From NCBI GenBank assembly GCA_964589775.1, contig CAZPUN010000013.1, forward strand, positions 50,057 to 70,056: a stretch of 20,000 nucleotides of DNA, in the 5' to 3' direction. The notes under the pieces are model-generated. The model did not search any database. It was not told the DNA's origin and saw only the letters and a list, made by a program, of their open reading frames with translations. The stretch comes from an uncultured archaeon (GTDB lineage: Archaea; Asgardarchaeota; Thorarchaeia; Thorarchaeales; CAZPUN01). Of this stretch, positions 927-19,698 are shown piece by piece (position 1 is the first letter of the stretch; every line of letters begins with the position of its first letter). A program made the translations under genes and the position numbers.

Positions 927-1682
927 TTGTCATCAATTATTTTAGCTCGTAGGCTATATGGTCCTTTTTTAAAAAAGGCCTATAATTATTTCAAACGAGA
1001 ACTTAGTGAGATTTTTTCTGAATTGGATCTTAAATTTGTTTGTAATTTACTTGACGATGGTCGTTTAAAAATTAAATTAGAGGGTATTGATAGCGAATTT
1101 GCATCAAATCTATTGAAACAAAAGTATGGCGAGTGTATTTCTGTATCACAACTAAAAATTGGAACAAAATTCATAGGAAATCTAATTGATGTTGGAAAAC
1201 ATGGATTTGGTCTCTATGTTCGACCGTGTTACTGTAGTGAGTTTTATAAAGACGCGCTATTACCTTTGTATTTAATAAAAAAACAATTATCTAATGAATC
1301 CTTACGCAAGCTTGTTTTTAGATATGGTTTTGTCGAGTTTCAAAACATCGAAGTTGAAATTGTGGATTTAGATTATAAATTAGAATCTCCTGATGTTCCA
1401 TACAAAATTTCTGTTAATTTTACAAGGCGTCAATTAGATATATTTAATTCTTGGGTCAATGCAAACCATGATCGTATTATTATTTCAGGTGCATTGCTAT
1501 CTGATGTGCGACGTGCGCTGATTAAAACAGATCATATATCTGATATTTTAAAAATGAAGAGTCCCTGGATATTAGAACATATTCTTGTTGTAAAAAAGTC
1601 ATCAAATGCTACTGGCATTTTATCCTCTATCGGAAAATATCTCTCAAATGTACCTATAGGTATTATTCGTCGTAAGAATTAG
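927..1682 (+). CDS. Conserved archaeal hypothetical protein, DUF2110-like
   Basis: 251-aa intact ORF directly downstream of tfe, ending at the Shine-Dalgarno of the next gene. Family assigned from recalled sequence features only. Confidence 0.6.
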   Translation: MSSIILARRLYGPFLKKAYNYFKRELSEIFSELDLKFVCNLLDDGRLKIKLEGIDSEFASNLLKQKYGECISVSQLKIGTKFIGNLIDVGKHGFGLYVRPCYCSEFYKDALLPLYLIKKQLSNESLRKLVFRYGFVEFQNIEVEIVDLDYKLESPDVPYKISVNFTRRQLDIFNSWVNANHDRIIISGALLSDVRRALIKTDHISDILKMKSPWILEHILVVKKSSNATGILSSIGKYLSNVPIGIIRRKN

Positions 1683-1694
1683 GAGGAATTTATT

Positions 1695-2357
1695 CTGAGA
1701 CTCGACGAATATATTCGATTTTTAGGAATAGTGGAGTCTAGAAATAGATCTCAAAATTTAATTCAAAATGGTATGGTCTTTGTTAATGGAAAAATGGTAA
1801 AGAAGCGGTCCTATGTTGTCAATGATAGTGATTTTTTGCTTGTTTTATTAAATGATGACTATCGCTATCCATTGGGTTATTCAAAAATAAAGAGATTGTT
1901 AAAATATATAAATATACAAATTTCCAAAAAAGCAAAAATATTGGATGTAGGTTCAAGCCATGGAGGATTTATTGAATATTTCTCTCAATATACACATAAT
2001 ATAACTGCTATAGAAATTGATAAAGAAAAGGTTAATTATTTAAAATCAAAATATAATTTTTTGGAAATAATTTGTGCCGATGCTTTTAAAATTCCGTATA
2101 ATAAATTTAAGAAAAATTCATTTGATATTATTTCTATTGATGTTACTACTGAACCTGAGGGCACTTTAAACTTGATTAAAAAATTTCTTTTATTCTTAAA
2201 AGGTGAAGGCATTCTTATTGCTGCATTTAAGTGTAATTGTTCTTTTATTGAAAATGAATTGAATAATATAAAATATTTTGGGGGTGTTGTAAAAAAGGTC
2301 ATTCAGCTAGATGAAAAAAAGCGTGAATGCCACGTATTTATTTCCCGCGACGTTTGA
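1695..2357 (+). CDS. S4 RNA-binding domain + FtsJ/TlyA-like SAM-dependent rRNA methyltransferase
   Basis: Extending the track ORF (1731) upstream in frame gives RLDEYIRFLGIVESRNRSQNLIQNGMVFVNGKMVKK, a typical S4 domain, followed by ILDVGSSHGGFIEYF (SAM motif). No ATG/GTG/TTG before 1731. CTG 1695 follows AGGAGG at normal spacing. Confidence 0.72.
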   Translation: MRLDEYIRFLGIVESRNRSQNLIQNGMVFVNGKMVKKRSYVVNDSDFLLVLLNDDYRYPLGYSKIKRLLKYINIQISKKAKILDVGSSHGGFIEYFSQYTHNITAIEIDKEKVNYLKSKYNFLEIICADAFKIPYNKFKKNSFDIISIDVTTEPEGTLNLIKKFLLFLKGEGILIAAFKCNCSFIENELNNIKYFGGVVKKVIQLDEKKRECHVFISRDV

Positions 2358-2853
2358 TCTTTACAACATCCCCTAGTGTTAATTCTTCATCTTTTTTATC
2401 AAGTTTTATAGGAATGTCAGGTATTTCTATTCGTAAGCTTATTCCTAAGACTCTCTCTAATTTTTTAATTGTTTTATTTTCTGGGACTATCCGTTTAGTC
2501 TCGATTGCTTGTAAAACTGATAGTCGTTCTCCAATTTGTCTCGCGAGTTCTTGTTGTGAAAGTCCCAATTTTTGGCGTCTCTCTTTAATTACTACATTGT
2601 AGTCCTCAATAATTTCATAATCTTCGTCCAATTGTCTTGATTTTTTATGCGTTCTAATTTTTGGCTTTGGAATGTAGACTTGTTTTCTTATTCTTTTTGA
2701 ACTGTGTTTCTTTTGTTCTATAGGCTCAGATTTAATTTCCTCACCTAATTTTGCGCACGTAGAACAAACAGTCATTGTGGCTCCTTCAATTCTAATGGTA
2801 ATTGGTTTGCCCTTTATAGGGCGCCCACAAATCTCACAAAGCAATTTGGTCAC
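2338..2853 (-). CDS. Archaeal multiprotein bridging factor 1 (aMBF1), zinc ribbon + HTH
   Basis: CEICGR..VCSTCAKLG zinc ribbon, then HTH VVIKERRQKLGLSQQELARQIGERLSVLQAIE. Start may be TTG at 2844 (GGTG-N6-TTG) rather than GTG 2853. Confidence 0.88.
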   Translation of the reverse strand: MTKLLCEICGRPIKGKPITIRIEGATMTVCSTCAKLGEEIKSEPIEQKKHSSKRIRKQVYIPKPKIRTHKKSRQLDEDYEIIEDYNVVIKERRQKLGLSQQELARQIGERLSVLQAIETKRIVPENKTIKKLERVLGISLRIEIPDIPIKLDKKDEELTLGDVVKIKRRGK

Positions 2854-2959
2854 CTTTTATATAATATAAAAAGCATTAACACAAATAACCGTTACAATTT
2901 TATTTATAGCATTTTTTATATTAAAAGTAACAAATATAAACATATAAAATAAAGAATTA

Positions 2960-4174
2960 ATGGGTATGACAATGACGGGATCAGTAACTGACAAAGATAA
3001 CAAACGAATTAATGATGCATATTTATCTAGTTATGCACAACATCTTGAAAGAAAATTAAGAGCTCTTGAAACTGAAAAGCAAATCTTGCATGCTGAAAGA
3101 GCAAGACTTCAACAAGAGCTTCATTCATTACGAGTTGAATTAGAAAAAATGCGGCATCCTCCGCTTGTTGCTGCTACTATTGTTGATGTATTACCTGATG
3201 GGCGAGCTATTGTTCGTAGTACTACTGGGCCCTCGTTCGTTGTATATGTTGCATCATCAATACCACAAAAGTATTTACAACCGGGAAGTCATGTTGCATT
3301 AAATCAGAGAACTTTTGCGATAGTTGAAGGTCTTCCTGTAAATCGAGAACCATTTATTAAAAATATGGAAATTGAAGAGGTTCCGAATGTTACATATGAT
3401 GATATTGGTGGATTACATGAACAAATCCGTGAAATTAGAGAGACTGTTGAACTTCCACTATTAAAACCCGAATTATTTGAAAAAGTTGGAATTGAACCAC
3501 CAAAAGGCATATTACTTACTGGGCCTCCCGGGACTGGAAAAACATTGTGTGCAAAGGCTGTTGCACATGAAACAAAAGCAACATTCATTAAAGTAATTGC
3601 ATCCGAATTCGTTCAGAAGTTTATTGGTGAAGGTGCGCGTATTGTTCGTGAAATTTTTGACTTAGCACGTGAAAAAGCCCCTACAATTATGTTTATCGAC
3701 GAGTTGGATGCTGTTGGAAGTCGCCGCTTAGATATTGCAACTAGTGGAGATCGTGAAGTACAACGGACTCTTATGCAGCTTCTAAGTGAGATGGATGGTT
3801 TTGAATCTCGTGGGAATGTCAGAATTATTGCAGCTACAAATCGACCTGATATTTTAGATCCTGCACTGTTAAGACCCGGACGCTTTGATAGAATCATTGA
3901 ATTTACTCTACCTAATCTAGATGGGCGTATTGAAATATTCAAAATCCACACAAGAAATATGAATATAGATAAAGATATTGATTTCATAAAATTAGGCGAA
4001 TTAAGCGAACATGCAACCGGTGCAGATATTAAGGCTATTACGACTGAAGCCGGCATGTATGCCATACGCGCAGGTCGAACAAAAGTAACAATGGATGATT
4101 TTATCAACGCAATTGAAAAAGTTTTACATAAAACAAGTAGATCATTCAAAGCTCCTGTTGATATTTACGCCTAA
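2960..4174 (+). CDS. pan: Proteasome-activating nucleotidase (PAN), AAA+ ATPase
   Basis: N-terminal coiled coil, Walker A GPPGTGKT, Walker [27 protein letters not shown]-terminal ...DIYA fitting an HbYX motif. Confidence 0.95.
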
Positions 4175-4289
4175 TTTTTCCTTTTTTTACTTAACAATTT
4201 TTTATATTCTGATGTATTTTTTTAATATGTACATATTATTTTTATCTGATAACGTAATTCTATTAAGATTATAAATCTCAATTTTATTT

Positions 4290-4501
4290 GCGATGACGAG
4301 ATATTCCCACTATCGAGGGCGCGTTGAGAAATATCGATGATACGCTGCGCAATATGTGGGAAACATCTGAGCAAGCGCCGGAACTACAGAAACACCAGAA
4401 TTCCTGGCACGAGAGAGCTCAGCAGAGGTGGACGGAATGTCCTGACTGTGAAGCTGAGTGTTAGTGCGTTAGGATACAGGTGTTCCTGTACCGGCGCTTT
4501 T
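4290..4501 (+). ncRNA. Candidate structured non-coding RNA (family unidentified)
   Basis: GC-rich block in an AT-rich intergenic region with no ORF. TTATAAAT at 4269-4276, TTCCCAC(4304-4310)/GTGGGAA(4356-4362), long rod AGCGCCGG(4374-4381)+TACAG(4385-4389)+AACACC(4391-4396) paired to GGTGTT(4479-4484)+CTGTA(4486-4490)+CCGGCGCT(4491-4498), then TTTT. Confidence 0.55.
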
Positions 4502-7790: not shown

Positions 7791-7883
7791 TGGAGCCCCG
7801 GGCGGGACTTGAACCCGCGGCCTCCTCCTTACCAAGGAGGCGATTTGGCCCTTTACTTGTCTAACCAACTGAGCTACCGAGGC
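7791..7883 (-). tRNA. tRNA-Thr (anticodon GGT) with a predicted 16-nt intron in the D-arm (about 7845-7860)
   Basis: Acceptor GCCTCGG/CCGGGGC, anticodon arm CCTCC-TTGGTAA-GGAGG, T arm GCGGG-TTCAAGT-CCCGC, encoded CCA. About 16 nt extra between GGTTAG and ATCG; GGTT/GGCC central helix with AGA and AAA bulges. Confidence 0.88.
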
Positions 7884-7935: not shown

Positions 7936-8137
7936 TGGTGGGGTCGACGAGATTTGAACTCGTGACCATTACCCCGAATTGCAGCGTATGCAATTCGCAC
8001 AGGTTTCTCAAGGCTTGCCTCTCCAGAAGTTCATCATCTGATCATCAGCAAACCTGTGTTGGCGCACAGCCTTCTGGAGCCTGCCGCGATTCAGGGCTTT
8101 TGGTATGACCAAGCATACCTGACTTCGCCACGACCCC
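7936..8137 (-). tRNA. tRNA-Trp (anticodon CCA) with three predicted introns: D-loop (8090-8115), anticodon loop (8005-8073), variable region (7969-7998)
   Basis: Acceptor GGGGTCG/CGACCCC, D stem GCGA/TCGC, anticodon stem GCAGG/CCTGT, loop CTCCAG|A, variable TGGTC, T arm ACGAG-TTCAAAT-CTCGT, encoded CCA. Removing 26+69+30 nt leaves a normal 77-nt tRNA including CCA. Confidence 0.85.
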
Positions 8138-8298
8138 ATCTATATTCATCAAATAATGAGTTAACATTATAAAATAAACATTTCGATAATATCCTATCTG
8201 GGCGCTTTATTTTATGGCGCCTGTATATAATCTAAATTATATACTTTGTGCAATTAAAGAAAACTTTATTTACAAAACTTATGATACTATGAATCGGT

Positions 8299-8420
8299 AT
8301 GCTGGCCATAGGTGGTGGTGATACGCCTGTTCCCATCTGAACACAGAAGCTAAGACCACTACCGGTCCGCGTAGTAGTGCGGTGCGCGAGCCCGTGCAAG
8401 CCGCGGATAGCTAGCAGCCA
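8299..8420 (+). rRNA. 5S ribosomal RNA
   Basis: GGTGGTGATACGCCTGTTCCCATCTGAACACAGAAGCTAAGACCACTACC core, with terminal helix GCTGGC/GCTAGC. Ends approximate. Confidence 0.93.
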
Positions 8421-13435: not shown

Positions 13436-13525
13436 GCCTCGGTAGCTTAGCGGCATAGCGGCAGACTTGTATATGAATGTAAAGAAATCTGCAGGTCGCG
13501 GGTTCAAATCCCGCCCGGGGCTCCA
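13436..13525 (+). tRNA. tRNA-Thr (anticodon TGT) with a predicted 15-nt intron at 37/38 (13472-13486)
   Basis: Acceptor GCCTCGG/CCGGGGC, anticodon stem GCAGA/TCTGC, loop CTTGTA|A, T arm GCGGG-TTCAAAT-CCCGC, encoded CCA. Confidence 0.9.
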
Positions 13526-13640: not shown

Positions 13641-14459
13641 ATGCAAATTGATGCTTCAAATTTATGGAATATGATTATAGGTGCCTTTAAACCCTTATCT
13701 GATGCTCTGAGTGGTATAGGAATTAATGTATCCCCGAGTTTCTTGTTTTTATTAATTACGGGAATTTCGGTCTTCCTACTTGTGATCTTTATAAGACGCA
13801 GAACAAGCTTACTTGATTCTGATATAATGCCAGAATATCGTGAGCTATTGGAGTCTTCTATATCTTCCCCATTGACTACGATTGAGATACGAAAGTTATC
13901 TCAAATCAGGGACCCCAGACAATTACTAATATTGATGAAAGTGGAAGAAGCTGCTGTAGAAAATGCAATTAAGTTATTAAATGCGCTTCTTAAATCTGGT
14001 GAAATTGACGAATCATTTCATAGTTCCATTCTTAATCTGTATGATGTTAGATTAAGAAGACTTCAAGAAGTATTAGAAAAGGCTCGTGATATTGATAAAC
14101 TAAAGAGAACTGAAGCTGATATTTCTCATGCTAGGCATGAATATATACGAAAGCTTGCTTCATTATCTGGTGCAGCGCCGCCTGTAGCTGGAGCGCCACC
14201 GGCAGCTGGGGCACCACCGGCAGCTGGGGCACCACCGGCAGCTGGGGCACCACCGGCAGCTGGGGCACCACCGGCAGCTGGAGCGCCGCCTGTAGCTGGG
14301 GCACCACCGGCAGCTGGGGCACCACCGGCAGCTGGAGCGCCATCCCGCCCTGTATCAATGGCACGAGCTATTACTGGGACTGATAAGAAAAAGGAATCTC
14401 TTCAAGATGAAATGCTTAGTGCTATTGAGCAATTAAAACAGCTTATTGAAATGGATTAA
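13641..14459 (+). CDS. Membrane-anchored coiled-coil protein with Ala/Pro/Gly tandem repeat, function unknown
   Basis: 272-aa ORF with N-terminal TM (SFLFLLITGISVFLLVIFI), helical region, about ten GAPPAA units, and basic/charged C-terminus. Start preceded by GGTG-N7-ATG. Confidence 0.75.
   Translation: MQIDASNLWNMIIGAFKPLSDALSGIGINVSPSFLFLLITGISVFLLVIFIRRRTSLLDSDIMPEYRELLESSISSPLTTIEIRKLSQIRDPRQLLILMKVEEAAVENAIKLLNALLKSGEIDESFHSSILNLYDVRLRRLQEVLEKARDIDKLKRTEADISHARHEYIRKLASLSGAAPPVAGAPPAAGAPPAAGAPPAAGAPPAAGAPPAAGAPPVAGAPPAAGAPPAAGAPSRPVSMARAITGTDKKKESLQDEMLSAIEQLKQLIEMD
14172..14345 (+). repeat. 18-bp in-frame tandem repeat (unit encodes GAPPAA/GAPPVA)
   Basis: About ten near-identical copies of GGGGCACCACCGGCAGCT in an otherwise AT-rich genome. 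Confidence 0.92.
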
Positions 14460-14529
14460 ATTATCGCGAACTTTTGTTCAGCGATATTATTTTATATTTT
14501 TATTTACGGTTTATTTTTGGTGTTATAGT

Positions 14530-15222
14530 ATGAGTTCTGCAAAGCATAATTCTGCAAAATCTGCAATTAAAATGGTAAAAGATAACTTTACTATTGGTCT
14601 AGGTAGTGGTACTACTGTTGTTTATTTTATTGAAGAATTATCTGAATTAGTTAAAATGGGATATCATATTAAAGTGGTCCCATCCTCCTATCAGTCTTAT
14701 TCATTGGCAATAGAATATAAAATACCTATTACAAATTTAGATGAATCTCCTATACTTGATATAACAGTTGATGGTGCAGATGAAGTGGATCCCGACCTAA
14801 ATTTAGTAAAGGGTGGTGGTGCTGCTCTAACTCGTGAAAAAATAATTGCTTCTGCTGCTAAAGAATTAGCCATTATTGTTGATGACTCCAAGATTGTCAA
14901 GCATCTCGGTAAGCGTATTGGAATCCCTATTGAAGTCTTACCCTTTGCATGGGGATCCGTTAAGCGAAAAATTTTAGATATGGGATATGAGCCTATACTT
15001 AGAATGGCAACACGAAAAATGGGCCCTGTTATTTCTGATAATGGAAACTTCATAGTTGATGTGCAAATAAAAAATATTATAGATGATTTATACGAATTTA
15101 ATCATGCTTTACTTGAAATTCCTGGCGTAATTGAAACAGGTTTATTCATTAATATGGCTGATGTAGTACATGTTGGTACCTCTGAGGGCGCCTATACCCT
15201 AAATCGGCCTAATAAAAAGTAA
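14530..15222 (+). CDS. rpiA: Ribose-5-phosphate isomerase A
   Basis: IGLGSGTTVVYFIEEL, DITVDGADEVDPDLNLVKGGGAALTREKIIA, GVIETGLFINMADVVHVGTSEG. ATG 14530 preceded by GGTG-N7. Confidence 0.94.
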   Translation: MSSAKHNSAKSAIKMVKDNFTIGLGSGTTVVYFIEELSELVKMGYHIKVVPSSYQSYSLAIEYKIPITNLDESPILDITVDGADEVDPDLNLVKGGGAALTREKIIASAAKELAIIVDDSKIVKHLGKRIGIPIEVLPFAWGSVKRKILDMGYEPILRMATRKMGPVISDNGNFIVDVQIKNIIDDLYEFNHALLEIPGVIETGLFINMADVVHVGTSEGAYTLNRPNKK

Positions 15223-15235
15223 CGGGGCTATTTAT

Positions 15236-15814
15236 ATGAATGATACACTTGATAATTCAAAAAATAAAGATGAGAACACAATTCCTGTAGTAACTTTTGA
15301 TACTCAGGAGTATATTGGCATTGTATCTCCTGAAGAATATTCAAAGATTCTTCAATCTGGACCATTTGGAACACTAATTCAGGACCAATATGTACTAACT
15401 CCAATTGAATGTATGTATTTACTTTTTAAAAATAAGATTTTTTTAATTGATTCAGATGGATCTCCAATATCAATACACCAGCTTTTGAAAATCATGCTTC
15501 CACAAGATAAGGATATATGGACAAAATTTCTTGTATATTTTGATCTGAGGTCAAGAGGTTACTCTGTAAAGCAAGGTTTTGGACCTGGCATAAGTTTTAG
15601 ATTATATCCTCGTGGAAGTAGATTGGGTGATGATACTGCAAAAATGTTAATTTACATATTAACTGACGGTGACTCTATATCACTTGATGAATTAGAGCGA
15701 ATAACAAAACTTTCAACAAGTTCAAGAAAAAAATTAATTTTTGCTCTAATTAATCCACAAGGTGAAATTACGTACTATAAAGTATCTCAAGTACCACTAA
15801 GTGAGGGAAAATAG
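15236..15814 (+). CDS. tRNA-intron endonuclease (EndA) family protein, apparently lacking the catalytic His
   Basis: C-terminal domain FLVYFDLRSRGYSVKQGFGPGISFRLYPRGSRLGDDTAKMLIYIL...SSRKKLIFALINPQGEITYYKV resembles archaeal EndA. Tyr and Lys positions present; Thr replaces the catalytic His in an ungapped recalled alignment. Confidence 0.82.
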   Translation: MNDTLDNSKNKDENTIPVVTFDTQEYIGIVSPEEYSKILQSGPFGTLIQDQYVLTPIECMYLLFKNKIFLIDSDGSPISIHQLLKIMLPQDKDIWTKFLVYFDLRSRGYSVKQGFGPGISFRLYPRGSRLGDDTAKMLIYILTDGDSISLDELERITKLSTSSRKKLIFALINPQGEITYYKVSQVPLSEGK

Positions 15815-15815
15815 T

Positions 15816-17420
15816 TTGAGTAATAATGAAATATATGTTTTGGATACGTCGATAGTAATTGATGGATGGTTGTCTAAGCAAATAAAATCTGGAAATTTCA
15901 ATAATTCAAAAATAGTTATTCCAAATGTAGTTATCGCAGAAATCGAATATCAATCAAACCAAGGATATTCTTCTGGTCGTGCAGGATTAGATGAATTAAT
16001 CGAATTACGAAATCTAGAAAAATCTGGTTTTATTGAACTGATGTTATTTGGTGATCGCCCCTCACTAGATCAAATAAAGCTAAGTTATGGTGGTGAGCTT
16101 GATGAACTTATTCGTGCAGTAGCTTTTGAATTAAATGCTACACTTATTACTATGGATAAAGTGCAGTCAAAAGTAGCGGAAATTCAAGGTATTAATGTAA
16201 TTCTTGTAAAGCCGATGCGTGAAAATGGATATAAAATAGAAGACTTTTTTGAAAGTGATATAATGTCTATTCATTTAGCAGAAGGTAATCCTCCGCGTGC
16301 TAAGCGAGGTTCTCCAGGTAATTGGCAATTAGTCACTTTAAGTGATGATATTTTAACAAGAGACGATATTAAACTTCTAATTGAAGATATTTTCTATCAC
16401 GCAAAAGCTATGCCTGATACATTTTTTGAGATACAGGATCGTGGTGCTACCGTAATCCAAATGCAAAATCTGAGAATTGTAATTACAACTCCTCCATTTT
16501 CGAATAAATATGAAATCACGGCAGTGCGTCCAATTGTTCATTTAACTATTGAAGACTATAACCTAGATAATCAATTATTGGCACGATTAGATACCCGCGC
16601 AGAAGGGATTCTTGTCGCCGGTTCTCCTGGTGCAGGAAAATCAACATTTGCTGCGGCATTGGCTGAGCGCTATGCAAATCAAAATAAAGTTGTAAAAACT
16701 ATTGAAAAGCCCCGTGATTTAGAAGTGCCTGATACGATTACACAATATACTACACTTTCAGACAATATGGAACGTACAGCTGATGTTTTACTTCTTGTTC
16801 GTCCAGATTATTGTATTTATGATGAATTACGTCGTACTGAAGATTTTCAATTCTTTGCAGATCTTAGATTTGCAGGTGTTGGTGTAGTCGGTGTTGTTCA
16901 TGCAAATGAACCTATTGATGCAGTACAACGCTTTTTATCGCGTGTCGAATTAGGACAAATCTCACGGGTTATTGATACTGTAATCTTTTTGAAAGGCGGA
17001 AAGATTACTCATGTTTCGTCATTAAATCTTACAGTTCGTGTCCCCTCCGGACTAGCTGAAAAAGACCTTGCACGTCCTGTTGTTGAAGTTCGTGATTTTC
17101 ATACTGGTGCTTTAGAATATGAAATCTATACATTTGGAGAACAAACAATTGTTGTTCCCATAAAAGGAAGCAAAAAACGGAAAGGCAAAAGAGAATCAAA
17201 GACAATTATTCCTAGTATATCTATTGAAAAGCGCCATATTGTTATTTATGTTGGACGTGAATATGCCGATCAAAAAATAACAATATTGTCTAATGGGAAA
17301 CCCTTATTTGACGCATTTGTTGGGAAGGAAGGAGTAGCTAAAATAAGAAAGAAAACAAAGAATGGACGCCTGTTATTTGACCATATTTCAGCAGGTGCAG
17401 ATATTAAAGTTCAGACTTAA
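15816..17420 (+). CDS. PIN-domain + VirB11/PilT-like ATPase with C-terminal KH-like region (PINA-type protein)
   Basis: PIN start IYVLDTSIVIDGWLSKQ, Walker A VAGSPGAGKSTFAAAL, VLLLVRPDYCIYDELRRTEDF, VVGVVHANEPIDAVQRFL. Start TTG 15816 (ORF open from GTG 15801), directly after the EndA-like stop. Confidence 0.85.
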   Translation: MSNNEIYVLDTSIVIDGWLSKQIKSGNFNNSKIVIPNVVIAEIEYQSNQGYSSGRAGLDELIELRNLEKSGFIELMLFGDRPSLDQIKLSYGGELDELIRAVAFELNATLITMDKVQSKVAEIQGINVILVKPMRENGYKIEDFFESDIMSIHLAEGNPPRAKRGSPGNWQLVTLSDDILTRDDIKLLIEDIFYHAKAMPDTFFEIQDRGATVIQMQNLRIVITTPPFSNKYEITAVRPIVHLTIEDYNLDNQLLARLDTRAEGILVAGSPGAGKSTFAAALAERYANQNKVVKTIEKPRDLEVPDTITQYTTLSDNMERTADVLLLVRPDYCIYDELRRTEDFQFFADLRFAGVGVVGVVHANEPIDAVQRFLSRVELGQISRVIDTVIFLKGGKITHVSSLNLTVRVPSGLAEKDLARPVVEVRDFHTGALEYEIYTFGEQTIVVPIKGSKKRKGKRESKTIIPSISIEKRHIVIYVGREYADQKITILSNGKPLFDAFVGKEGVAKIRKKTKNGRLLFDHISAGADIKVQT

Positions 17421-17595: not shown

Positions 17596-17614
17596 ATTAA
17601 AAAAGGTGGGTCGC

Positions 17615-18094
17615 TTGATTTTTGAAAAGAATGAATTAATTGAATTTTTATCACATGCAGAACGATTGGTATTAATTGGGGTAGGTAATGAGAATTTAGG
17701 AGATGATGGTGTAGGAGTCTATATTGTAAATAGTATTCATAAAGCCACAAAATCTAATTTTGTATTAAATGGTGGTAGCGTTCCCGAAAATATTACTCAC
17801 AAATTAAGAAATTTATTGCCTACGCATATATTACTAATAGATGCCGCAAATTTTAATGAAGAACCTGGAAGTTTCATATTAGCAACATCCGACGATGTTG
17901 TTGGGAAATCAATTTCAACGCATCAATTACCTCTTTCTATTTTGATGAAATACCTTGAAAACGAATATCATGCAAATGTTCGTTTATTATGCATTCAGAT
18001 TGAATCAAAAATTCCTTCTATGAAATTAACACAAAGTGTGTTGCATACTGCAAATAATCTTATTAATATCTTAATTCCTTATTTTTCAAAATAA
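17615..18094 (+). CDS. Hydrogenase-maturation-protease (HycI/HybD) family protein
   Basis: LVLIGVGNENLGDDGVGVYIVNSI, THILLIDAANFNEEPGSF, STHQLPLSILMKYLE. TTG 17615 follows GGTG-N6 (ORF open from 17606). Confidence 0.75.
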   Translation: MIFEKNELIEFLSHAERLVLIGVGNENLGDDGVGVYIVNSIHKATKSNFVLNGGSVPENITHKLRNLLPTHILLIDAANFNEEPGSFILATSDDVVGKSISTHQLPLSILMKYLENEYHANVRLLCIQIESKIPSMKLTQSVLHTANNLINILIPYFSK

Positions 18095-18106
18095 GAGGTG
18101 AATATT

Positions 18107-19144
18107 TTGTATAAGACGGTAGAGTGGTTAGATAATAAAAATGCAGTAAAATTAATTGATCAAACAAAGCTTCCATTAAAAGAAAAATTCATTGTTACCA
18201 AATCATATAAACGAATTGCAAAGGCAATTAAAATTATGGAGGTTCGAGGAGCTCCTGCTATTGGTGTTGCCGCAGGGATGGGTATGGCATTAGCAGCTAT
18301 TGAGTCTAAAGCAAAAAATAAAGAACAATTAATTCACTTCTTAGAAAATGCGGGGAAAATTCTTACCTCAACGCGACCAACAGCTGTAAATCTATTCTGG
18401 GCAGTAGATCGTATGCTAAATAAAGCCCGTGAATTATCCGGCGACGTTGATTTTATCATCAATGAGTTAATAAAAGAAGCAAAACTAATTGCAGAAGAAG
18501 ATATACAATCTTGTATCAATATTGGAAAAAATGCCTTAGAACTGATTGAGGATGATTGGACAATTCAGACGATTTGTAATGCCGGTTCTTTAGCAACCGC
18601 TTGGTATGGTACTGTCGGTGGAGTAATTAGAGAAGCATATAAGAATAAGAAGGGCATAAAAGTTTATGCTGCTGAAACTCGTCCTAGATTGCAAGGTGCC
18701 AGATTAACTGTTTATGAATTTATGAAAGATAATATACCAGTTACACTAATTACCGATTCAATGATCGGAACCGTGTTTTCACAAGGAAAAATAAATTGTA
18801 TTGTTGTGGGCGCAGATAGAATATTAAAATCCGGACATGTAATAAATAAAATAGGTACATATACAATGGCAATAGTTGCAAAATATCATAACATTCCATT
18901 TTATGTTGCTGCTCCAATATCAACATTTGACCTAAAAACGCCTGTTGAAGAAGTCATTATTGAAGAACGTAGTGGTGATGAAATTCGTAAAATTAATGGT
19001 GAATACATCACTGTACCGGATGTTCCAGTGTACAATCCTGCATTTGACATAACTCCACCTGAATTGATCTCTGCTATAATCACAGAAAAAGGTATAATTC
19101 GAAATCCACAACCGGATACAATACTAAAACTTGTAAAAAGTTAA
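18107..19144 (+). CDS. mtnA: S-methyl-5-thioribose-1-phosphate isomerase-like protein (MtnA / aIF2B-related family)
   Basis: EVRGAPAIGVAAGMGMALA, TSTRPTAVNLFWAVDRM, TICNAGSLATAWYGT, ETRPRLQGARLTVYE, VVGADRI, NKIGTYTMAIVAKYH. TTG 18107 follows GAGGTG-N6. Confidence 0.85.
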   Translation: MYKTVEWLDNKNAVKLIDQTKLPLKEKFIVTKSYKRIAKAIKIMEVRGAPAIGVAAGMGMALAAIESKAKNKEQLIHFLENAGKILTSTRPTAVNLFWAVDRMLNKARELSGDVDFIINELIKEAKLIAEEDIQSCINIGKNALELIEDDWTIQTICNAGSLATAWYGTVGGVIREAYKNKKGIKVYAAETRPRLQGARLTVYEFMKDNIPVTLITDSMIGTVFSQGKINCIVVGADRILKSGHVINKIGTYTMAIVAKYHNIPFYVAAPISTFDLKTPVEEVIIEERSGDEIRKINGEYITVPDVPVYNPAFDITPPELISAIITEKGIIRNPQPDTILKLVKS

Positions 19145-19216: not shown

Positions 19217-19310
19217 GGGTCCGTAGTCCAGCCTGGATTAGGGCGCAGGCCTTCGGTCTTGTCAGGAAGATAGTCTGATGTCGGGAGTTCAAATCTCCCC
19301 GGACCCGCCA
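19217..19310 (+). tRNA. tRNA-Arg (anticodon TCG) with a predicted 15-nt intron at 37/38 (19257-19271)
   Basis: Acceptor GGGTCCG/CGGACCC, anticodon stem CAGGC/GTCTG, loop CTTCGG|A, T arm GGGAG-TTCAAAT-CTCCC, encoded CCA. CTTC/GAAG central helix. Confidence 0.9.
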
Positions 19311-19585: not shown

Positions 19586-19698
19586 GGGCCCGTAGCTCAG
19601 AAACTTACCAATGAAGCTGGAACGGTAGAGCGTCAGGCTTTTATCAAAGTTCGGAAGAAACCTGCTGGCCGCGGGTTCAAATCCCGCCGGGCCCGCCA
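19586..19698 (+). tRNA. tRNA-Lys (anticodon TTT) with two predicted introns: D-loop (19603-19622) and anticodon loop (19644-19659)
   Basis: Acceptor GGGCCCG/CGGGCCC, D stem GCTC/GAGC, loop CTTTTA|A flanked by CAGG/CCTG, T arm GCGGG-TTCAAAT-CCCGC, encoded CCA. Confidence 0.88.

Follow-up and report, generated by a model that had tools for sequence, protein, structure and literature searches.

A histidine-less EndA-family protein of an uncultured archaeon, probably the structural subunit of a two-gene tRNA-splicing endonuclease

Some archaeal tRNA-splicing endonucleases are heterotetramers of the type (alpha-beta)2, in which a catalytic alpha subunit works together with a structural beta subunit. 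In the solved enzymes of this type the last beta-strand of the structural subunit is the element by which it pairs with alpha, and its L10-like loop reaches into alpha of the opposite heterodimer; dimers of alpha alone are inactive (PMC2724299, PMC6379350). In P. aerophilum, Sulfolobus and N. equitans both subunits have proved necessary for cleavage, and absence of the conserved His was the criterion by which structural subunits were assigned (Yoshinari 2009, PMC2724299). According to Kaneta 2018 (PMC5829648), TACK archaea widely share a two-gene (alpha-beta)2 endonuclease, which also occurs in Asgard archaea, and the endonuclease of Korarchaeota is a lineage-specific fusion. In enzymes of the A. 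fulgidus type the N-terminal half is a non-catalytic structural repeat (PMC6379350). Here we investigate an EndA-family gene, endA, found in a stretch of 20,000 nucleotides (nt) from an uncultured archaeon (contig CAZPUN010000013.1, positions 50,057 to 70,056; "the window" below means this whole stretch). Its product lacks the catalytic His, and we put the probability that it is the structural (beta) subunit of a heterotetrameric (alpha-beta)2 tRNA-splicing endonuclease at about 0.85.

The gene and its two domains are placed in the window as follows.

15236..15814, + strand: EndA-family gene, 192 amino acids, ATG start (open reading frame; Pfam, TIGR00324, 1a79, AlphaFold, and the ratio of nonsynonymous to synonymous change, dN/dS)
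15320..15484, + strand: EndA N-terminal domain, residues 29-83 (PF02778 at 7.7e-07, 29 bits, cut-off 21)
15515..15775, + strand: EndA C-terminal ("catalytic-type") domain, residues 94-180, without the catalytic His (PF01974 at 2e-19)

Both parts of the Pfam superfamily definition, PF01974 and PF02778, are present by profile and by fold. The PF01974 match covers profile positions 1-85 of 85 with 69.9 bits (cut-off 27), and the generic NCBI endA model, TIGR00324, is passed with 76.2 bits against a cut-off of 59.6. An AlphaFold2 model made with 52 homologues as input has a mean predicted local distance difference test (pLDDT) value of 92.2 and a predicted template modelling (pTM) score of 0.86, with the N-terminal domain above 90 in pLDDT. 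Superposition of this model on M. jannaschii EndA (1a79) gives template modelling (TM) scores of 0.79/0.88 and a root-mean-square deviation of 2.2 A. Foldseek returns 1a79, 2cv8, 3ajv and 5x89, all with probability 1.00; 1a79 ranks first, followed by endonuclease chains of S. tokodaii, A. pernix and M. kandleri. The two-domain EndA fold is therefore confident at the level of the model.

The top match among PDB sequences (phmmer) is likewise M. jannaschii EndA, 1a79, at 1.4e-20. Residues 42-145 of the window protein align without a gap to residues 25-128 of the chain, and over the active-site stretch the two read frlyprgsrlgddtakmliyi (window) and frlyerganidkehsvylvkv (1a79). M. jannaschii residue numbers are PDB 1a79 chain positions plus an offset of 8 residues. 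The sites that matter for catalysis and assembly are these.

15605..15607, + strand: codon of Tyr124 (tat), equivalent to M. jannaschii Tyr115, retained (1a79 alignment)
15635..15637, + strand: codon of Thr134 (act), at the catalytic His site, M. jannaschii His125 (1a79 alignment)
15707..15709, + strand: codon of Lys158, at the A. fulgidus Arg280 site, first half of the clamp (A. fulgidus alignment)
15728..15730, + strand: codon of Lys165 (aaa), equivalent to M. jannaschii Lys156, retained (1a79 alignment)
15752..15766, + strand: L10-like loop N173-P-Q-G-E177 between the last two strands (column counts; AlphaFold model)
15788..15790, + strand: codon of Gln185, at the second clamp site, A. fulgidus Arg302 or A. 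pernix alpha Trp183 (alignment column of the relatives)

The Tyr-His-Lys triad is incomplete, with Y124 and K165 present and T134 in place of the His. The clamp for the bulge base, formed by Arg and Arg or by Arg and Trp, is absent as well: its sites carry K158 and Q185 (for the roles of A. fulgidus Arg280 and Arg302 and of A. pernix alpha Trp183 see PMC3241643). Three separate features of a catalytic unit, the His and both clamp residues, are thus missing. The sole His of the protein, H81, lies in the N-terminal domain and has no counterpart in an orthologue that is 70% identical. An alpha4 enzyme combines the triad and an acidic L10 loop in a single unit; the window protein has no His and its loop is N-P-Q-G-E. 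This loop is of the right length and lies in the AlphaFold model between strands E166-172 and E178-182. With E177 as its one acidic residue it is a lineage-specific variant of the sequence D-R-x-G-[DE], the consensus of the His-less clade described below. The C-terminal strand is predicted with high confidence at residues 178-182 (ITYYK), where Y181 is invariant and Y180 near-invariant (at least 90%) among 52 relatives. The model thereby contains the predicted strand through which heterodimers pair (beta9-beta9'). Much of this had been proposed in a sequence-only reading of the same DNA, which described a single-unit EndA-family protein of 192 residues, aligned it without gaps to an M. jannaschii sequence with Thr at the catalytic His and with Tyr and Lys kept, and placed its only His in the N-terminal domain. 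The open reading frame is exact, both Pfam domains are matched, phmmer against 1a79 gives the same string, and H81 is where it was said to be.

Is the absence of the His peculiar to this protein? Searched exhaustively with HMMER, a set of 1.84 billion representative proteins contained 1098 relatives, and the best 150 of these were parsed against the profile. Among them, 74 of the 85 single-unit proteins are His-less at the catalytic site. Counts by class are given here.

Single-unit, His-less (n = 74): His site P 20, A 10, V 10, T 9, G 6, S 4, others; Tyr 66/74; Lys 67/74; Arg at the Arg280 site 15/74
Single-unit, His-bearing (n = 11): His 11/11; Tyr 11/11; Lys 10/11; Arg at the Arg280 site 11/11
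Two-unit proteins, C-terminal unit (n = 61): His 56/61; Tyr 61/61; Lys 60/61; Arg at the Arg280 site 61/61

No substitute for the His is conserved across the His-less single-unit clade. In the 61 two-unit proteins it is the N-terminal unit that is His-less, and the C-terminal unit is of the Y-H-K type. The Arg280 site is Arg in all His-bearing units (72/72). The second clamp site, where aligned, is R or W in the C-terminal units of two-unit proteins, and W, R or Y in His-bearing single units. The L10 loop of the 11 His-bearing single-unit matches has the pattern D-[DKE]-[ED]-x-[DS].

Named members of the clusters nearest to the window protein come from Methanomethylicia (Verstraetearchaeota), Culexarchaeia, Lokiarchaeota and Helarchaeota; a Methanomethylicota homologue (P0003) has Ala at the His site. 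A scan of the GTDB r232 genome collection, in which neither the window lineage nor its sister species is included, yielded 21 loci. All are from Methanomethylicia, with 36-43% identity to the window protein, and in 21/21 a His-less (beta-type) profile outscores the catalytic-unit profile. For this gene the closest relatives belong to the Methanomethylicia (TACK); the host is an uncultured, AT-rich archaeon. Its RpoA' and S12 proteins, compared with PDB, match Thermococcus and Sulfolobus equally well and so do not help to place it. The lineage is rare, being represented by only two clusters at 90% identity among ~15 billion proteins. The G+C content of the window and of the loci in our set that are numbered L001-L009 is 34-37%.

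The substitutions at T134, K158 and Q185 (for the roles of these sites see PMC3241643 and PMC6379350), taken together with membership of the His-less clade, point to a beta subunit. So does the way in which the protein aligns to two-unit models: three of the four two-unit NCBIfam models place it on their N-terminal half (NF006795 at positions 18-164 of 350). A fused arrangement in Korarchaeota/Methanodesulfokora (P0103, P0118) bears on the same question. Here a His-less N-terminal unit is joined to a TACK-type catalytic unit that has Tyr-His-Lys and the motif GPGxxHAPY, and the N-terminal unit reads ..FRLYPRGGRIGKSVAKSLV.., close to ..FRLYPRGSRLGDDTAKMLI.. in the window protein (the FRLYPRG... 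type). This fusion serves as a Rosetta stone, which argues that units of the window kind partner with a catalytic unit. On these alignments the protein groups with units known as structural. The proposal of the sequence-only reading that it is a structural or partner subunit finds good support in the His-less clade, the lost clamp, the alignment to N-terminal repeats and the Korarchaeota fusion. Several tRNA genes in the window contain introns, so the cell needs an active endonuclease.

How does the protein compare with characterised enzymes? Like the A. pernix beta subunit (chain A of 3P1Z/3AJV, 170 amino acids, in the two-domain class of ~20 kDa; Yoshinari 2009), it is a single unit with both domains. 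With crenarchaeal and TACK beta subunits it further shares the lack of the catalytic His, the L10-like loop and the C-terminal strand, as well as a TACK-related lineage whose tRNA genes have non-canonical introns. Unlike the crenarchaeal beta subunits, it has retained Tyr and Lys from the triad, and its loop reads N-P-Q-G-E. The N-terminal repeats of the A. fulgidus alpha'2 enzyme (1RLV/2GJW) and of the Korarchaeota fusion have also lost the His and the Arg clamp and have often kept Tyr and Lys, but the window gene is free-standing and unfused. Euryarchaeal N-terminal repeats have a strongly acidic L10, D-E-E-[GS]-D, in contrast to N-P-Q-G-E. The alpha4 enzyme of M. jannaschii (1A79) resembles the window protein in length class, domain order and the ungapped alignment of the active site; it differs in being active without a partner and in having the full triad Tyr115-His125-Lys156, the Arg clamp and an L10 loop that is acidic (D-A-D-G-D). 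The M. kandleri (alpha-beta)2 enzyme (5X89) would be alike in being a heterotetramer from two genes, and its beta, 166 amino acids long, also has two domains. Against the 5X89 fusion the window protein scores 47 bits with the alpha part and 25 bits with the beta part.

By analogy with these systems we infer that the same genome encodes a separate alpha subunit with Tyr-His-Lys, and that this alpha assembles with the window protein into a tetramer. As in the crenarchaeal, nanoarchaeal and M. kandleri enzymes, beta would pair with the catalytic alpha through its C-terminal strand, and its L10-like loop would dock into the alpha of the opposite heterodimer. The two alpha active sites may in this way be scaffolded by beta at the bulge-to-bulge spacing of the bulge-helix-bulge motif. 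Having neither the general-acid His nor either clamp residue for the flipped-out bulge base, beta itself would cut no RNA.

A number of observations weigh against this assignment. The protein stays far below the cut-offs of the NCBIfam equivalog models for beta subunits (NF007084, NF007085 and NF007086; 41.8 vs 157, 28.1 vs 101 and 14.8 vs 162 bits), yet it passes the generic endA model. By sequence and by fold it is nearer to catalytic chains (1a79, 2cv8, 3ajv_B) than to solved beta subunits, whose similarity is very weak (the beta chain 3ajv_A at E = 0.14 with a TM of 0.62; 2zyz_A at 0.006; NEQ261 at 9e-05). The single acidic residue of its L10-like loop is fewer than characterised structural units have. 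A six-frame hmmsearch found no second EndA in the window; its flanks, covered over 7 kb on the upstream and 14 kb on the downstream side (~41 kb in total with the window), contain no EndA gene either. Within 10 kb of endA, no second EndA occurs in the sister species or in the 21 Methanomethylicia loci. The NCBI beta-subunit models seem to be too narrow for this clade, and the greater likeness to catalytic chains may result from divergence of the crenarchaeal beta subunits.

The catalytic partner was also sought more widely. A profile of 36 catalytic units was run against a set of 5.8 billion proteins. The best 120 of its 2750 matches are all 266-336 amino acids long, the size class of two-unit proteins, and every named one among them is euryarchaeal. 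The closest His-bearing single-unit proteins (P0114, P0185 and P0327) were rejected as partners since their contigs come from other samples; the P0114 family belongs, besides, to a DPANN/Thermococci-type alpha4 group. A scan of viral contigs for the partner found nothing. The second EndA with an intact Tyr-His-Lys triad that the sequence-only reading had called for is thus not found within the ~41 kb around the gene.

Genes on both sides of endA are arranged on the same strand.

14446..15222, + strand: rpiA (ribose-5-phosphate isomerase A), ending 13 nt upstream of endA (open reading frame and Pfam)
15816..17420, + strand: protein of 534 amino acids with a PIN domain and a PilT/T2SSE-like ATPase, starting 2 nt after the endA stop (Pfam PIN 2.5e-11, T2SSE 2.7e-07)
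17606..19144, + strand: hycI-like protease and eIF-2B-family genes (Pfam; tblastn)

The order rpiA-endA is common to the orthologous loci of the sister species (L001/L002), and from their spacing the two genes are probably co-transcribed. The PIN-ATPase gene is conserved in that genome (10581-12185 in L001/L002) and is also called at 1592-3196 in locus L005. It is absent beside the endA orthologue in the 21 Methanomethylicia loci, where the orthologue directly adjoins hycI. Judged from gene order, endA and the PIN-ATPase gene may form an operon peculiar to this lineage that encodes two RNA-processing proteins. The hycI and eIF2B-like pair adjoins the His-less endA in 20 of the 21 Methanomethylicia loci (L018-L038), and the short contig L037 has hycI only. 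Identity of these neighbours to the window genes is 46-53% for eIF2B-like and 31-39% for HycI (tblastn). In Methanomethylicia the pair is divergently oriented, whereas in the window endA, hycI and eIF2B lie on one strand with the PIN-ATPase gene inserted. The shared neighbours support orthology with the beta-like genes of Methanomethylicia and put the organism of the window close to that group.

Could the gene be something other than a beta subunit? A missing His might be an artefact of assembly or sequencing, or the mark of a decaying pseudogene, and the sequence does come from metagenome assemblies. This can hardly be credited: independent ENA and Logan assemblies contain the very same protein, the 70%-identical orthologue from the sister species (P0002) has Ser at the site, the relatives in the clade are His-less and the reading frame is intact. 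The sequence-only reading had itself allowed for a sequence error at this position, and these comparisons answer it. Between the window gene and its orthologue, the proportions of nonsynonymous (pN) and synonymous (pS) differences are 0.21 and 0.66, for a dN/dS of ~0.15, and identity is 52% over residues 1-90 and 86% over residues 91-192. By these comparisons endA is a maintained functional gene under purifying selection and no remnant. It is also improbable, if somewhat less so, that the protein is a duplicate that has left the endonuclease complex for another role, such as RNA binding or a function with the adjacent PIN-domain ATPase. The near-contiguity of the two genes in both species would suit such a role, as would the departure of the loop NPQGE from the clade consensus DRxG[DE], but the linkage to the PIN-ATPase is confined to this lineage, and the 86% conservation of the C-terminal domain includes the terminal strand used in subunit pairing. 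Were this gene such a duplicate, an (alpha-beta)2 enzyme would moreover need another beta-like gene, which the inspected region does not show.

Or is the window protein the only EndA of its organism, a homotetramer that cuts without the canonical His, by means of another general acid or of Tyr, Lys and the geometry of the substrate? Tyr124 and Lys165 are retained and are conserved across the clade, both domains are present at the size of an alpha4 subunit, among solved structures the alpha4 enzyme of M. jannaschii matches best, and the ~41 kb examined hold no partner. We nevertheless consider it very unlikely. Residues at the His site are extremely variable across the clade (P, A, V, T, G, S, M, E), with no alternative catalytic residue conserved, and the lone H81 is not conserved either. 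Both clamp residues for the bulge base are missing, and the same pattern is seen in the N-terminal units of two-unit enzymes, which are known to be non-catalytic. The relatives, finally, are from TACK and Asgard lineages in which a separate catalytic alpha has been reported. The corresponding statement about the whole lineage, that it has no His-bearing EndA at all and that a His-less protein, as its sole tRNA-splicing endonuclease, cuts the bulge-helix-bulge without a general-acid His, deserves slightly less credence again. If true, it would be the only remarkable reading.

If the window protein is a beta subunit, little changes: one more such subunit is added to the known (alpha-beta)2 endonucleases of TACK and Asgard archaea. 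The window gene then encodes one of the ordinary parts of an enzyme type that is already known, in a lineage that is seldom sampled, and there is nothing unusual in it, (alpha-beta)2 being the published norm for these archaea. A practical point concerns names. Members of the His-less clade clear the cut-off of the generic endA model, and public records call the His-less relatives P0003, P0005, P0009, P0010 and P0013 "tRNA-intron lyase", which probably overstates function across the His-less clade. Where a His-less endA is counted as "the" endonuclease, the genome is misclassified as alpha4-type, and this matters to studies that link endonuclease architecture with the diversity of tRNA introns. 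The heavily interrupted tRNA genes of this rare lineage make its catalytic subunit worth retrieving.

These genes, putative substrates of the enzyme, are the following.

7794..7883, - strand: tRNA-Thr(GGU)-like, non-canonical insertion of 17-19 nt in the D-arm (Rfam tRNA, 48 bits; 19 nt vs 2 in the model)
7936..8137, - strand: tRNA-Trp(CCA)-like, ~200 nt, insertions in D-loop, anticodon loop and variable region (weak match to the tmRNA model; by eye)
13436..13522, + strand: tRNA(UGU), anticodon-loop intron of ~15 nt (Rfam tRNA, 58.6 bits; 17 nt vs 2 in the model)
19217..19307, + strand: tRNA(UUC), anticodon-loop intron of ~15 nt (Rfam tRNA, 45.6 bits; 18 nt vs 3 in the model)
19586..19698, + strand: tRNA-Lys(UUU)-like, two insertions, in D-loop and anticodon loop (weak match to the tmRNA model, 23 bits)

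In the tRNA-Thr(GGU) gene the D-stem strand GCUC has no GAGC partner, and GGGC is available with a G-U pair; neither by eye nor by folding were exon-intron boundaries found that restore a normal D-stem. Neither ARAGORN nor the Rfam tRNA model detected the tRNA-Lys(UUU)-like gene. By eye its acceptor stem is GGGCCCG/CGGGCCC and its D-stem GCUC/GAGC, the T-arm is normal, the CCA is encoded, and insertions of ~17 and ~16 nt enlarge the D-loop and the anticodon loop, respectively. The tRNA-Trp(CCA)-like sequence folds with a z-score of -3.9. Its anticodon-loop insertion contains two UGAUGA boxes and a stretch, CUUCUGGAG, that is complementary to the anticodon loop CUCCAGAAG; at the level of sequence the insertion recalls the box C/D guide RNA of archaeal tRNA-Trp introns.

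Non-canonical introns are compatible with an (alpha-beta)2 enzyme in this organism, and in that respect the suggestion of the sequence-only reading that a heteromeric endonuclease accounts for the odd introns may be right. Broad specificity, however, resides in the L1/CSL loop of alpha (Yoshinari 2009, PMC2724299; Kaneta 2018, PMC5829648). The P. aerophilum enzyme kept its specificity when it was turned into a homodimer (PMC2724299), and the (alpha-beta)2 enzyme of M. kandleri, whose alpha has no L1 loop, is constrained in specificity (PMC5829648). With specificity placed in the alpha loop by these studies, heteromeric architecture alone does not explain the introns, and as a causal account the suggestion is right only in part.

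Beside the cluster of interrupted tRNA genes stands a stand-alone 5S rRNA gene (8298-8419, + strand, 80.6 bits); no 16S or 23S rRNA gene was detected in the window. A weak match to the H/ACA guide RNA HgcG/Pab40 (4249-4483, + strand; 23.8 bits against a gathering score of 77, E = 0.004) sits in the gap between genes for a PAN-like ATPase and a protein of beta-lactamase fold.

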